Assembly: GCA_049968315.1 (NCBI GenBank)
Contig: JBMFRA010000006.1
Span: forward strand, 647 to 64,646
Direction of reading: 5' to 3'
DNA from: Acidobacteriota bacterium
GTDB taxonomy: Bacteria; Acidobacteriota; UBA4820; DSQY01
Length of the DNA: 64,000 bases
The notes beneath the pieces were generated by a model. That model made no database searches, was not told the origin of the DNA, and was given only the letters and a program-made list of their open reading frames with translations. Position numbers and translations under genes: made by a program. Positions 53,769-64,000 of the stretch are shown piece by piece; within the stretch, counting starts at the first letter, position 1, and each line of letters starts with the position of its first letter.

Positions 53769-53784
53769 TGGCATCCTTCTTGCT
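53769..53784 (+). promoter_or_regulatory. Candidate sigma-54 (-24/-12) promoter
   Basis: TGGCAT-CCTTC-TTGCT matches TGGCAC-N5-TTGCW, with GG at 53770-71 and GC at 53782-83 exactly 10 nt apart. It lies ~25 nt upstream of the ATG at 53808, inside a ~290-bp intergenic region. Confidence 0.45.
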
Positions 53785-53807
53785 ATTGGCCCTTGGGCGG
53801 GAGGACC

Positions 53808-56417
53808 ATGAAGGGCGCCGCGTTGGGGCTCTGCCTTCTGGGAGTACTGGAGGCCGCGGCGGCCCGGGGTGAAGTTCCTTCCGCCCCCCCGGAGGTGAAG
53901 GCCGTGCCCGGTCCCGTTGCCCCCCTCTCCGAACCCCAGCCGCCCTGCGGCGAGGCCGCCCGGGTCACCGCCATCGTTCCTTCGGCGGACGGCCTGGACC
54001 TCCAGGGAGAGGGGCCTTTTCACCCGGCGCCGCTCAGGGCCGAAGGGGTTTCGGAGCGGGGGCTCTCCGGCTTCTCCCGCCTTATCCTGGAGATCGAGAA
54101 CGCGAGGCCCGAAGGCCTTCCCCCCCGCCTCTTTTGGGAAAGCGGCCCCTTCGCCGAGGCCCGCCTTCGACTTCTGAGGAACCCGTCGGGGTGCCCCCTC
54201 CTGCGGGTGGAGCTCCTTCTCCGGGGGGAGGGACCTTGGGAGATTGTCACCGAGCCGAAACAGCTCAAGATCCGCCGCCCAGCCGGTCGGCCCGGCCCTG
54301 GGCCGACGGGGGGCGAGTCCCTCCAAGCGGCCCGGTCCTTCCGCTTTTCCCTGGGGGGCGCCCTCTCGGAGCTGGGGGGAGGCGAGGGCCGCCTCCGCTC
54401 GGGAAACGTCCAGCTCGCCTACGCCCAGCAGACACGCCTCGGCCTCCTTCGCGCCTTCGCCGCCTCCTACTCCCCCCGCGGCGCGGGCTCGGGAGCCCCC
54501 TACGGAGGGGCAGCCCTCTCCGCCATTCCGGCGGGCCCCTTCCTCCTGGGCGCCGCCGCCGGGGACCTCCAGACCACCTTGGGGGGCGGTTCGGGGACCT
54601 TCCTCTCCCCCACCACCCTCCTTCTCCGGGGAGGGGCGGTGACCCTTTCCCGGGGGGGAGTGCGTCTGGCGGTCTTCTCCGGGCAGGCGGCCTCCCCCGC
54701 CCTCACCCGCCTCCCCGACGCCAGCGGCGTCCTTCCGGAGATCGGCCCCGGCCACCTCCGGGGGGCGGAGGTCTCCTTCGCCGTGGAACCCCTGCGGCTG
54801 GAGGTGGCGGCGGGCCTTCTCCAAAACCGCCCCCAAGGTGAAAAGGAATGGCAAAACGCCTTCCTCTCCCTCGCCGTCCATCCAGTCTCCGAAGGCGAAG
54901 CCCGCCTTCTCCTGGAAGGCTCCAGCGGCGGCGGCTGGGCGGCCACGGTGGAACCCCGGTTAAGCGGCCCCACCTTCAGCCTCGGCGGCTACTACCGCTA
55001 CGCGGCAAAGGACTTCCGCCCCCCCCTGGGGACCAGCCTCTTCGCCTCCCTGCGGCACGGCTACAACCTCTACGGTACTTCCCGGCTGGCGGAGGGCCTT
55101 ACGGCCACCCTCGCCCTGAGCCAGAGCAAGTCCTTCAGCCTCTTTGACCCCGCCGCCGTGGGGACCCTCTCCTCCAACCAGACCGCCTCCCTCGGCTGGG
55201 CGGCGGGGAGGGGTTTCACGGCGGGGATCTTCGCCTCCCGAAGCGAGAGTCGGTCCGACCCCGGGGCCGCGGTTCCCACCCGGGCTCGTTCCGAAAACGC
55301 CGGCCTCTCCCTCTCCTGGGGAAGGGGATCCTCCTCCGCTTCCCTTCGCCTTTCGCGGGAGAGGGTCCGGGACGACTTCCGCCGAAACCAGGACCTCACG
55401 GCCCTCCGGCTCGACGGCGAGGGGCGGCACACCTTCGGCGGCGGGGCCGAAGGCCGCCTCCTTTTCCGGTTTTACGACGGCCAGCGGCCCTCCGGGGAGC
55501 GGGTGAACCGGTACTACGAGGCCCGCGCCGAGGGGCGGTGGCGGCTGGGCCCCTCGGGCGCCCTCAGCCTGGACCTGGGTCTCTCGGAGACGCCGCCGGG
55601 GCCCGCCCTGGTGCGGGTCCGTCAGGAAAGCGCCGGAGCGGGCCTGGATCTGGGGGCGGGTGGCCTTCGGGGCTCCCTCCGGGTCTCGGCCTTCCGCCAA
55701 GAGGTGGAAGGCAGGCGCCCTCGGAACGGGTTCTTGGCCCAGGTGAACCTCGGCGGCCTCTTCCAGCGTGGGGCGCGGCCTCCCGCGGCCCCCGCCGAGG
55801 GAAGGGCCCTGCCCCTTCCCTTCGAGGCCCCCGAGGCGGGGACCCTCCGGGTCCTGGCCTTCTGGGACGAAAACGGAAACGGCCTCCGGGAACCCGGCGA
55901 GGCTCCCCTGCCCGCCGCCGTTCTCCTCGACGGCCGCCGGAGGCTCCTCTCGGCGGAGGGGGAAGGCCGGTTCGCGCTCCTACCTGGCCGCCACCGGGTG
56001 GAGGCGGAGTGGTCGGGCCCCCTGGTGGATGGCTTTCTGCCCCAGGCCTCCCACACGGTGGAGGTGGAGGCGGGCCGGACCTTAGAGGTCACCTTTCCCG
56101 TCCGGCCGGCGGGAAGGGTGGAAGGGCGCCTAGCCTTCCAGGGGACCCTCCCCTCCCCCGGCGCCCTGGCCCAGGTTCGGATCACCGCCTCGGCGGGCGG
56201 GGTCTTGCGAGAAGCCGTGACCGACGAGCAGGGTTTCTTCTCCTTCGGGCCGTTACCGGAGGGAAAGGCGCGCATCGTCCTCGACGGAACCACGCTGGCG
56301 GAAGGCGTGGTGGCCGCCGGGCCCACAGAACAGGAGGTGACCATCGTCCGAAAAGAGACCACCCAAACGGTATTTTCTCTGCGGGCGGCCACGGCCCGCG
56401 AACGGATCCTTAAGTGA
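53808..56417 (+). CDS. Secreted/outer-membrane protein: AMIN-like N-domain + long amphipathic beta-rich (barrel-like) region + two CarboxypepD_reg-like C-terminal domains
   Basis: Signal peptide MKGAALGLCLLGVLEAAAA. An AMIN-like segment (LILEIENARPEGLPPRLFWESG...LLRVELLLRGEGPWEIVTEPKQLKIRRP). About 500 aa of Gly/Ser/aromatic-rich alternating pattern typical of OM beta-strands (...YYRYAAKDF...LFASLRHGYNLYG...). C-terminal LRVLAFWDENGNG...RVEGRLAF domains. Confidence 0.6.
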   Translation: MKGAALGLCLLGVLEAAAARGEVPSAPPEVKAVPGPVAPLSEPQPPCGEAARVTAIVPSADGLDLQGEGPFHPAPLRAEGVSERGLSGFSRLILEIENARPEGLPPRLFWESGPFAEARLRLLRNPSGCPLLRVELLLRGEGPWEIVTEPKQLKIRRPAGRPGPGPTGGESLQAARSFRFSLGGALSELGGGEGRLRSGNVQLAYAQQTRLGLLRAFAASYSPRGAGSGAPYGGAALSAIPAGPFLLGAAAGDLQTTLGGGSGTFLSPTTLLLRGGAVTLSRGGVRLAVFSGQAASPALTRLPDASGVLPEIGPGHLRGAEVSFAVEPLRLEVAAGLLQNRPQGEKEWQNAFLSLAVHPVSEGEARLLLEGSSGGGWAATVEPRLSGPTFSLGGYYRYAAKDFRPPLGTSLFASLRHGYNLYGTSRLAEGLTATLALSQSKSFSLFDPAAVGTLSSNQTASLGWAAGRGFTAGIFASRSESRSDPGAAVPTRARSENAGLSLSWGRGSSSASLRLSRERVRDDFRRNQDLTALRLDGEGRHTFGGGAEGRLLFRFYDGQRPSGERVNRYYEARAEGRWRLGPSGALSLDLGLSETPPGPALVRVRQESAGAGLDLGAGGLRGSLRVSAFRQEVEGRRPRNGFLAQVNLGGLFQRGARPPAAPAEGRALPLPFEAPEAGTLRVLAFWDENGNGLREPGEAPLPAAVLLDGRRRLLSAEGEGRFALLPGRHRVEAEWSGPLVDGFLPQASHTVEVEAGRTLEVTFPVRPAGRVEGRLAFQGTLPSPGALAQVRITASAGGVLREAVTDEQGFFSFGPLPEGKARIVLDGTTLAEGVVAAGPTEQEVTIVRKETTQTVFSLRAATARERILK

Positions 56418-63222: not shown

Positions 63223-63368
63223 CCGTCTCGATTCCGAGAATGAACCCCCACCCTTCTCGTTTTTGAGAAGCCCGCTATCTTACAAAATCTCTATTATCAA
63301 TAGGTTAGGCCACAGCCGCCACTGGTACGGCCCTTGCTCTCCTTTAGGCGGATGCCTAGGAGGCGGCC

Positions 63369-64000
63369 ATGAAACGCAAAGCGATCTTCGGAATGGCGGC
63401 GGGGCTTCTGGCGGCAACGGCCGTTTGGGCCCAGGCCGACTCCAAAACGGGGACCGGCCGCGCCAGTGCTTCGGTGCGCGTGACGGTGTCCATCCCCGGT
63501 GTCGTTGCCTTGGAGGTTCCCGACGAGGTCACCTTTGACTTGGCGAAGTACCTGAAGAACGGTTCCCGGGTCTCTCCCGGCGACCCCTGCCCCGACAACG
63601 TCTTTCCCCCGCCCCCCGGCTGCACCGGGACGGCGCGCTTCGATCCCACGGAGATCAAGACCGCGGCGCTGGAAGCCCGCGGGCTGGCCGTCCGTCCGGG
63701 GGAGAGCCCCCTCTACGTCTTCTCCAACGGCGCCTCGGGGACGCTGGACCTCCAGGCTTCGGTGGAGCCCGCCTGGTCGGGCCCCGGCGATGGTCCGGGC
63801 TTTTCCACCACGGCCTTGAGGCTTCGGCCCGCCCCCGGAGCCCCCGAAGGACCGCTGGCGAGCGCGGGACGCCACCTGGCCCAAAGCCCCGAAACCCTGC
63901 TCTCCCTGCCGGCCCGGAGCGGGGGCTGGAGGAAGCTGCCGCTGGCCCTGGACCTGGAGATTCCGGGCGCCGGGGCGGTGGCCTTCCAGGAGGGAACTTT
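63369..64000 (+). CDS. Secreted protein, member A' of the paralogous pair (partial; continues beyond window end)
   Basis: Signal peptide MKRKAIFGMAAGLLAATAVWAQA. The SVRVTVSIPGVVALEVPDEVTFDL...FPPPPGC...VFSNGASGTLDLQASVEPAW block is clearly homologous to 56443..57099. It is preceded by an unusually AT-rich ~70-bp stretch. Confidence 0.7.
   Translation, partial: MKRKAIFGMAAGLLAATAVWAQADSKTGTGRASASVRVTVSIPGVVALEVPDEVTFDLAKYLKNGSRVSPGDPCPDNVFPPPPGCTGTARFDPTEIKTAALEARGLAVRPGESPLYVFSNGASGTLDLQASVEPAWSGPGDGPGFSTTALRLRPAPGAPEGPLASAGRHLAQSPETLLSLPARSGGWRKLPLALDLEIPGAGAVAFQEGT

Follow-up and report, generated by a model that had tools for sequence, protein, structure and literature searches.

A cluster of genes for secreted proteins

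Near the end of a 64,000-nucleotide stretch of contig JBMFRA010000006.1 (assembly GCA_049968315.1; the whole stretch is called the window below), from a hot-spring-type Acidobacteriota genome, lie seven genes on the same strand, g1 to g7, for which a reading of the sequence alone had proposed a chaperone/usher-like or Fap-like system of surface fibres. The gene calls bear out these genes together with their positions and spacings, and the products of all seven begin with signal-peptide-like N termini, as judged by eye. From g1 to g7, the genes are separated by 25 bp, 57 bp, three successive 4-bp overlaps and 146 bp; the GC content of this last gap is 54%, versus about 70% across the window. 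The products of the second and seventh genes are called A and A'.

53808-56417, + strand: g1, 869 residues
56443-57099, + strand: g2, encoding A, 218 residues
57157-58044, + strand: g3, 295 residues
58041-58898, + strand: g4, 285 residues, GTG start
58895-61405, + strand: g5, 836 residues
61402-63222, + strand: g6, 606 residues, GTG start
63369 to past the end of the window (64000), + strand: g7, encoding A', at least 210 residues (221 to 222 in orthologues)

The gene family is very rare. An index of 5.8 billion proteins contains 18 relatives of A, and an exhaustive scan with HMMER across 1.84 billion representatives yielded 50 clusters at 50% identity. Scanning genomes that cover 185,579 species gave three loci, each in a metagenome-assembled genome (MAG) of Acidobacteriota or Thermoanaerobaculia, and three further ones came from a metagenome collection. 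Every source named in its record belongs to Acidobacteriota or Thermoanaerobaculia, the rest being a few unplaced metagenome contigs. The core g1-A-g3-g4, mostly with g5, is nevertheless present in at least six lineages. The order g1, A, g3, g4, g5, with A present once or twice, is found in the group formed by the window with loci L001 and L006, in L002 and L007, in L008 and L005, in L012 and in L018; L022 has g1-A-g3-g4 up to the end of its contig, and g5 comes after g4 wherever the contig continues. Protein identity between lineages is 25 to 49%, and the flanking genes, wherever they can be read, are not common to the lineages. The gene-neighbourhood check advised with the sequence-only reading thus finds the genes co-conserved across lineages in differing genomic contexts.

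A' is missing from some lineages and, outside the closest lineage, g6 is kept only over its first 180 residues or swapped for another protein, which leaves g1-A-g3-g4, in most cases with g5, as the invariant core. In L020 (positions 1-2038), a metagenome contig of 48% GC, g4-like, A-like and g3-like genes stand together in an altered order, and the family therefore extends past the high-GC Thermoanaerobaculia. In L008 (1083-2459) and L012 (4206-5540), a conserved secreted protein of 444 to 458 residues is encoded directly upstream of g1. This protein has no Pfam match and is absent from the window; it may be an extra, lineage-specific component.

Sigma-54 promoters and transcription units

The features that frame and control the cluster in the window are the following.

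53769-53784, + strand: sigma-54-type -24/-12 promoter P1, TGGCATCCTTCTTGCT (TGGCAT-N5-TTGCT), 23 nucleotides before the ATG of g1
63323-63338, + strand: sigma-54-type -24/-12 promoter P2 (TGGTAC-N5-TTGCT), about 30 nucleotides before g7
63226-63239 and 63255-63268, + strand: two 14-bp palindromes TCTC-N6-GAGA, 68 to 97 nucleotides upstream of the P2 -24 element
53610-53617, + strand: GGTAACAC motif, about 150 nucleotides upstream of the P1 -24 element, unique in the window
53540-53575, + strand: strong terminator-like hairpin and T-run (consensus scan), 3' of an unrelated upstream gene, forming the left boundary of the locus

The near-consensus -24/-12 element already noticed before g1 is real and conserved in most lineages, with the distance to the ATG now set at 23 nucleotides. 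P2 had been overlooked. On both strands of the window, the pattern TGGYAYN5TTGCW has two matches, P1 and P2, versus 0.03 expected by chance. These elements have the -24 GG and -12 GC of sigma-54 promoters at canonical spacing, they are placed as promoters of the genes that follow, and they are conserved. Upstream of g1, a GG-N10-GC element is present in L006, L001, L002, L007 and L012 and can be read by eye in L008; a P2-type element precedes A' in five loci belonging to two lineages (the window, L001, L006, L002 and L007). A TCTC-N6-GAGA palindrome occupies the same position in L001, L006, L002 and L007. Since both P2 and the palindromes are conserved before A', this gene appears to be transcribed apart from g1-g6. 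The single seven-gene operon of the sequence-only reading therefore gives way to two predicted sigma-54 transcription units, g1-g6 and a monocistronic A'. Sigma-70-like promoters were not found in the locus region.

The palindromes are plausible candidates for enhancer-binding-protein sites. Ahead of P1, GGTAACAC could, more speculatively, be a candidate activator-binding site; similar motifs, GTAACAC or GGTTACAC, lie upstream of g1 in L006, L001, L002 and L007. We also observed that GGTAACAC and GGTTAC(AC) (53610-53617 and 53692-53697 in the window) recur in two lineages at distances of 80 to 190 nucleotides upstream of the g1 promoter, and that L008, L012 and L018 carry TGTGTCA...TGACACA-like palindromes instead. 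The motifs upstream of g1 may be lineage-specific activator sites. In L012 (15434-19514), the cluster is adjoined by genes for a histidine kinase and an NtrC-type activator with the Pfam domains Response_reg, Sigma54_activat (4.3e-65) and HTH_8, and a histidine kinase and an NtrC-type activator likewise adjoin it in L018 (12827-16219). Additional neighbours are an HD-GYP-type response regulator in L012 and a further receiver protein in L018.

The gene upstream of the locus (52367-53512) keeps its synteny in the closest lineage only. At the other side, alaS lies on the opposite strand 3' of A' in the closest relatives, L001 among them, which places the end of the locus just past the window. Elsewhere in the window, a third near-consensus sigma-54-like match, TGGCACTTCTTCTGCA, occurs at 39368 on the minus strand, in or beside overlapping open reading frames opposite a leuS-like gene (39485-41938), and may be a chance match. 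A response regulator with Hpt, receiver and GGDEF domains, of the cyclic di-GMP synthase type, is encoded at 35752-37689 on the minus strand, 16 kb from the locus.

Proteins of the cluster and their predicted folds

A and A' share 30% identity (blastp E about 1e-14) and are paralogues, as had been supposed. The AlphaFold2 model of A, computed from a family alignment of 54 sequences, has a mean predicted local distance difference test score (pLDDT) of 91, and its structural matches are polymerising pilins. The model thus points to a pilin-type immunoglobulin (Ig) fold for A and A', which agrees with the earlier suggestion that these small paralogous proteins are of the fibre-subunit type. The most conserved block of the family, LTVTIPGVVGID at residues 41-52, reaches 3.1 to 3.3 bits per column versus a mean of 2.1. 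In the monomer model, no strand is formed before residue 49, so that the conserved N-terminal segment is left unpaired, and the chain stops right after its last strand. These predicted features are compatible with a pilin that has a donor extension at its N terminus. Searches by sequence returned no Pfam match for A, A' and 10 distant family members, the Fimbrial, SCPU and DUF4402 families included, and the A-family profile matched nothing whatever among PDB sequences. A type V pilus was considered and rejected, the subunits being devoid of a lipobox cysteine.

The g3 protein was modelled by AlphaFold2 from an alignment of 14 sequences (pLDDT 84). The model comprises two beta-sandwich domains, residues 25-155 and 163-266, a low-confidence loop (129-145) that precedes the final strand of domain 1, and a tail that is disordered. 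The top Foldseek matches are chains of the Enterococcus protein WxLIP (E 2.6e-10 to 1.9e-9), and pilus chaperones match with E values from 3e-9 to 1e-5 and TM-scores of 0.5 to 0.57 by target length. Over the full length, the structural matches are EcpB, CfaA, CsuC, FimC and PapD, as well as WxLIP; in the Foldseek ranking, WxLIP is followed by CfaA, CsuC, FimC, Caf1M, DraB and SafB. The model thus displays the two Ig-like domains of PapD-fold chaperones, and the chaperone likeness first attributed to this 295-residue protein is borne out at the level of the predicted fold. The accompanying statement that no PapD signature is present holds for the sequence but not for the fold. Indeed, g3 itself has no Pfam match at E<=1, PapD_N (PF00345) and PapD_C (PF02753) included, PapD_N gives a weak echo (E=0.13) in 2 of the 14 homologues, and a profile search of PDB sequences found nothing.

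Pilus chaperones complete the sandwich of their partner with a strand of their own. WxLIP does likewise with a loop strand in published AlphaFold2 models (PMC10599100). As the two groups of matches are both strand-completing, the same binding mode is indicated for g3, which we regard, from its model, as a candidate periplasmic chaperone. Residues R83 and R146 are invariant in the g3 alignment; in PapD, Arg8 and Lys112 form the conserved basic pair of the cleft that anchors the subunit C terminus. The disordered tail of g3 (residues 267-295) is Pro/Ala-rich and contains an R-L-A-P-x-A-P motif invariant in all lineages, which may serve to dock g3 to g1 or to another partner.

The prominence of WxLIP raises the possibility of a display complex of the WxL/WxLIP type, known from Enterococcus and Lactobacillales, in which g3 would bind A or A' stably through an inserted strand and keep it on the cell surface along with g5 and g6, and no fibre would be made. 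The Foldseek ranking, the two-domain beta-sandwich architecture and the disordered loop that becomes a partner-completing strand in the WxLIP models (PMC10599100) all speak for it. However, WxLIP has a C-terminal membrane helix and binds peptidoglycan-associated WxL domains, whereas g3 lacks such a helix and ends in its Pro/Ala-rich disordered tail. Pfam searches of the locus proteins and of the 14 g3 homologues gave no DUF916 or DUF3324 match, and A matches polymerising pilins and carries a conserved, free N-terminal extension. Furthermore, WxL systems belong to monoderm Firmicutes, whereas the named sources of the family are Acidobacteriota or Thermoanaerobaculia, which are diderm. We consider a complex of this kind distinctly unlikely.

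The product of g1 consists of a signal peptide, an N-terminal domain of about 145 residues, a conserved beta region of about 470 residues rich in Gly, Ser, Arg and Tyr, and two C-terminal CarboxypepD_reg-like beta-sandwiches. Conservation is strongest at residues 271-300 and 391-420. Pfam recognises CarboxypepD_reg alone, at residues 785-856, in keeping with the sequence-only reading; the AMIN-like domain also ascribed to g1 was not reproduced, appearing in none of 14 homologues even at E<=10. The profile search of the PDB likewise retrieved the C-terminal CarboxypepD_reg-like domain only, and the first 650 residues have no family match. A crude count of amphipathic strands in g1 failed to tell the controls apart and was set aside. 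The orthologues are 30 to 35% identical and invariably stand first in the cluster, in most lineages directly behind the sigma-54 promoter. In an usher, a gated beta-barrel of 24 strands has a plug and is accompanied by an N-terminal domain and two C-terminal ones. The domain order of g1 parallels this layout, an analogy that we treat as a lead. Given this order and the gene context, g1 may be the outer-membrane assembly platform, that is, an usher analogue.

Alternatively, a donor-strand fibre could be built with the PapD-like chaperone and no usher at all. In that case, g1 would not be the translocon but could, for instance, be an anchor or an MSCRAMM-like adhesin attached to the surface, with the subunits passing the outer membrane in some other way or self-assembling like TasA, archaeal threads and cannulae. 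The name given to g1 by NCBI is in line with this: g1 is 100% identical to a protein of an Acidobacteriota MAG annotated as a MSCRAMM family protein, and g3 is recorded as hypothetical in the same MAG. No search of g1 yielded an usher signal either. Nevertheless, the MSCRAMM name appears to be based only on the C-terminal CarboxypepD_reg/SdrD_B-like domains, while no gene of the cluster is placed more consistently than g1, which always comes first, in most lineages behind a sigma-54 promoter, and matches the usher layout in length as well as in domain order. Besides, a diderm cell requires some exit for the subunits through the outer membrane. TasA, archaeal bundling pili, threads and cannulae differ in having neither a PapD-like chaperone nor a large outer-membrane partner, for both of which there are candidates here. 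An usher-less fibre is, in our view, unlikely.

The g4 protein is made of two tandem beta-sandwich-like halves, according to sequence pattern and alignment. In distant lineages, each half closes with a G-x-Y-x-G-x-hydrophobic strand motif, reminiscent of the C terminus of A. It is kept in all lineages, L020 and L022 included, and has neither a Pfam match at E<=1 nor a credible PDB profile match. We propose g4 as a candidate minor, tip or adaptor subunit. For g5, the pectate-lyase-like parallel beta-helix recognised earlier at the C terminus is supported by the Pfam families Beta_helix (3.4e-13), NosD and DUF1565, the helix being right-handed. The g5 proteins are 30 to 43% identical from end to end across lineages, and their N-terminal part of about 480 residues is conserved and has no family match. 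We also noted that the segments following the signal peptide in g5 (58895-59050; GG-SATVTLSSGFAVSG) and in g4 of L002 and L007 (GG-ATLTVTT) resemble the extension of A, STLTVTIPGVVG. This resemblance was not significant when the families were compared with each other by hhalign, and it is therefore only a hint of docking by strand donation.

The g6 protein contains an N-terminal domain of about 180 residues that is weakly MAM-like (sub-threshold InhA-like_MAM matches in three lineages), four Cys-containing Ig-like repeats and a C-terminal domain. One of the four repeats, all proposed earlier, is recognised by Pfam as Ig_7, the other three being discernible by eye only. We see in g6 a putative accessory or adhesin module that varies between lineages.

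The nature of g5 and g6 opens another alternative, a co-regulated set of secreted proteins for glycan capture or degradation (lyase-like beta-helix, MAM-like and Ig-like modules) with no assembly pathway. In addition to the beta-helix families and the modules of g6, the PDB profile search of g5 gave a weak match to rhamnogalacturonan lyase. Yet g5 and g6 do not belong to the invariant core, g1-A-g3-g4, g6 being replaced in some lineages, and neighbouring, co-conserved genes for pilin-like and PapD-like folds would be unexpected in a degradative operon. This explanation seems highly improbable.

A probable donor-strand fibre pathway

Chaperone-usher pili (classical Fim/Pap, alternate CFA/I and ECP, archaic Csu and CupE) offer the closest parallel to the locus as a whole. 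In both, small subunits of pilin-type Ig fold, predicted here, carry an N-terminal extension and end at their last strand, several paralogous subunits are encoded per locus, and a two-domain PapD-like periplasmic protein is encoded beside them. The signal-peptide protein g1, of about 870 residues, has in addition a domain order resembling that of an usher. The likeness by predicted fold covers two of the three key parts, A and g3. There are differences, too: the subunits here are larger, with about 195 residues in their mature form, a conserved beta-helix protein of about 830 residues belongs to the cluster, sigma-54 promoters drive it, and the family has the narrow distribution described above.

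Several results weigh against a chaperone-usher-like pathway. Neither usher families (PF00577, PapC_N and PapC_C) nor secretin or outer-membrane families were found in g1 or its 14 homologues at E<=10, and no component has a match at threshold to Usher, PapC_N, PapC_C, PapD_N, PapD_C, Fimbrial or SCPU. Comparisons by hhalign with E. coli representatives were negative: the probability was 1.5% for g1 against FimD, HtrE, YehB and EcpC, 18% and not significant for g3 against chaperones, and 31% for A against pilins, over the last 15 columns only. On the regulatory side, the sigma-54 element was looked for upstream of g1 in L018 and not found. Finally, the enhancer-binding-protein gene that the sequence-only reading advised seeking nearby was neither detected by motif search of the 64-kb window nor seen adjoining the cluster there, the NtrC-type genes next to the cluster being those of L012 and L018.

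To our knowledge, chaperone-usher pili are classed by usher homology, and the same few profile models detect all the described classes. Since this class-defining homology was searched for and not found, the locus is, as judged from its sequences, not to be filed in any described chaperone-usher class. More generally, no Pfam, NCBIfam, PDB-profile or hhalign search ties a component to usher, PapD or fimbrial families, and the NCBIfam scan of the seven proteins gave nothing beyond the Pfam matches. This agrees with the sequence-only reading, which had reported no canonical usher, PapD, secretin, sortase or type IX secretion signature and no possible family placement. A literature search found no described system of such kind.

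Taking these observations together, we conclude that the locus probably encodes a donor-strand pilus of chaperone-usher-like kind, with parts that are orphans by sequence. Most likely, its component proteins have diverged past sequence recognition from every described chaperone-usher class. The fibre system proposed at the outset is thereby supported by the pilin-type models of A and A', the PapD-like model of g3 and the co-conservation of the genes, but not in its Fap-like version. Fap and curli operons resemble the locus in encoding secreted fibre subunits and an outer-membrane component; they differ in that no Fap or Csg match exists here and that A is modelled with high confidence as a folded Ig-like domain, not as an amyloid repeat. 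Fap/curli, secretin, sortase and type IX secretion systems were all rejected for want of a family match in the seven proteins (Pfam and NCBIfam, E<=1).

A related question is whether the locus could represent a deep, unrecognised branch of donor-strand exchange, in which g1 would have no relation to the PF00577 ushers beyond, at most, a structural analogy. Such a locus might perhaps be of the kind that makes the TLP-1 fibrils. TLP-1a and TLP-1b denote 8-nm donor-strand-exchange fibrils seen by cryo-electron microscopy (CryoSeek) in water of the Tsinghua Lotus Pond, and neither their producer organism nor their biogenesis genes have been identified (PMC11494351). Their secreted protomer is similar in size to A (237 residues in the chain of PDB entry 9ikk), and its N-terminal strand completes another protomer's Ig-like domain, as we propose for A. 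By contrast, the A-family profile has no match to any PDB sequence, 9ikk included, the donor in TLP-1 is protomer n+4 of an 8-nm tubule, and the predicted homologues of TLP-1 were reported from Flavobacteriales. We therefore regard a separate branch of this sort as possible but rather doubtful.

Returning to the chaperone-usher-like pilus, the pathway that we infer, with its strand-swap steps, its roles for g1, g4, g5 and g6 and the identity of its activator, would be as follows. An NtrC-type enhancer-binding protein would turn on the two sigma-54 promoters, of g1-g6 and of A', and Sec would export all the products. In the periplasm, g3 would cap the incomplete Ig fold of A or A' with the last strand of its domain 1, residues 146-155, which follows the flexible loop 129-145, and would then hand these subunits over to g1 in the outer membrane. 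There, the N-terminal extension of the incoming subunit (about residues 37-48, STSTLTVTIPGV) would displace the chaperone strand in the previous subunit, and repeated donor-strand exchange at g1 would make the fibre grow. The g4 protein would serve as a minor or tip subunit, while g5, with its beta-helix, and g6, with its MAM-like domain and Ig repeats, may be fibre-associated or co-secreted modules, adhesive or glycan-acting.

If pilin and PapD-like folds can escape every sequence model, this pathway would be older or spread more widely than surveys of sequences indicate, and fold-based searches would be needed to find the remainder of it. The locus may also provide a genetic handle on the orphan donor-strand fibrils revealed by environmental cryo-electron microscopy. 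Furthermore, it offers a way to test whether sigma-54 two-component control and pilus expression are linked. For the Thermoanaerobaculia, known here from MAGs and metagenome contigs only, it represents a candidate adhesion or biofilm fibre.

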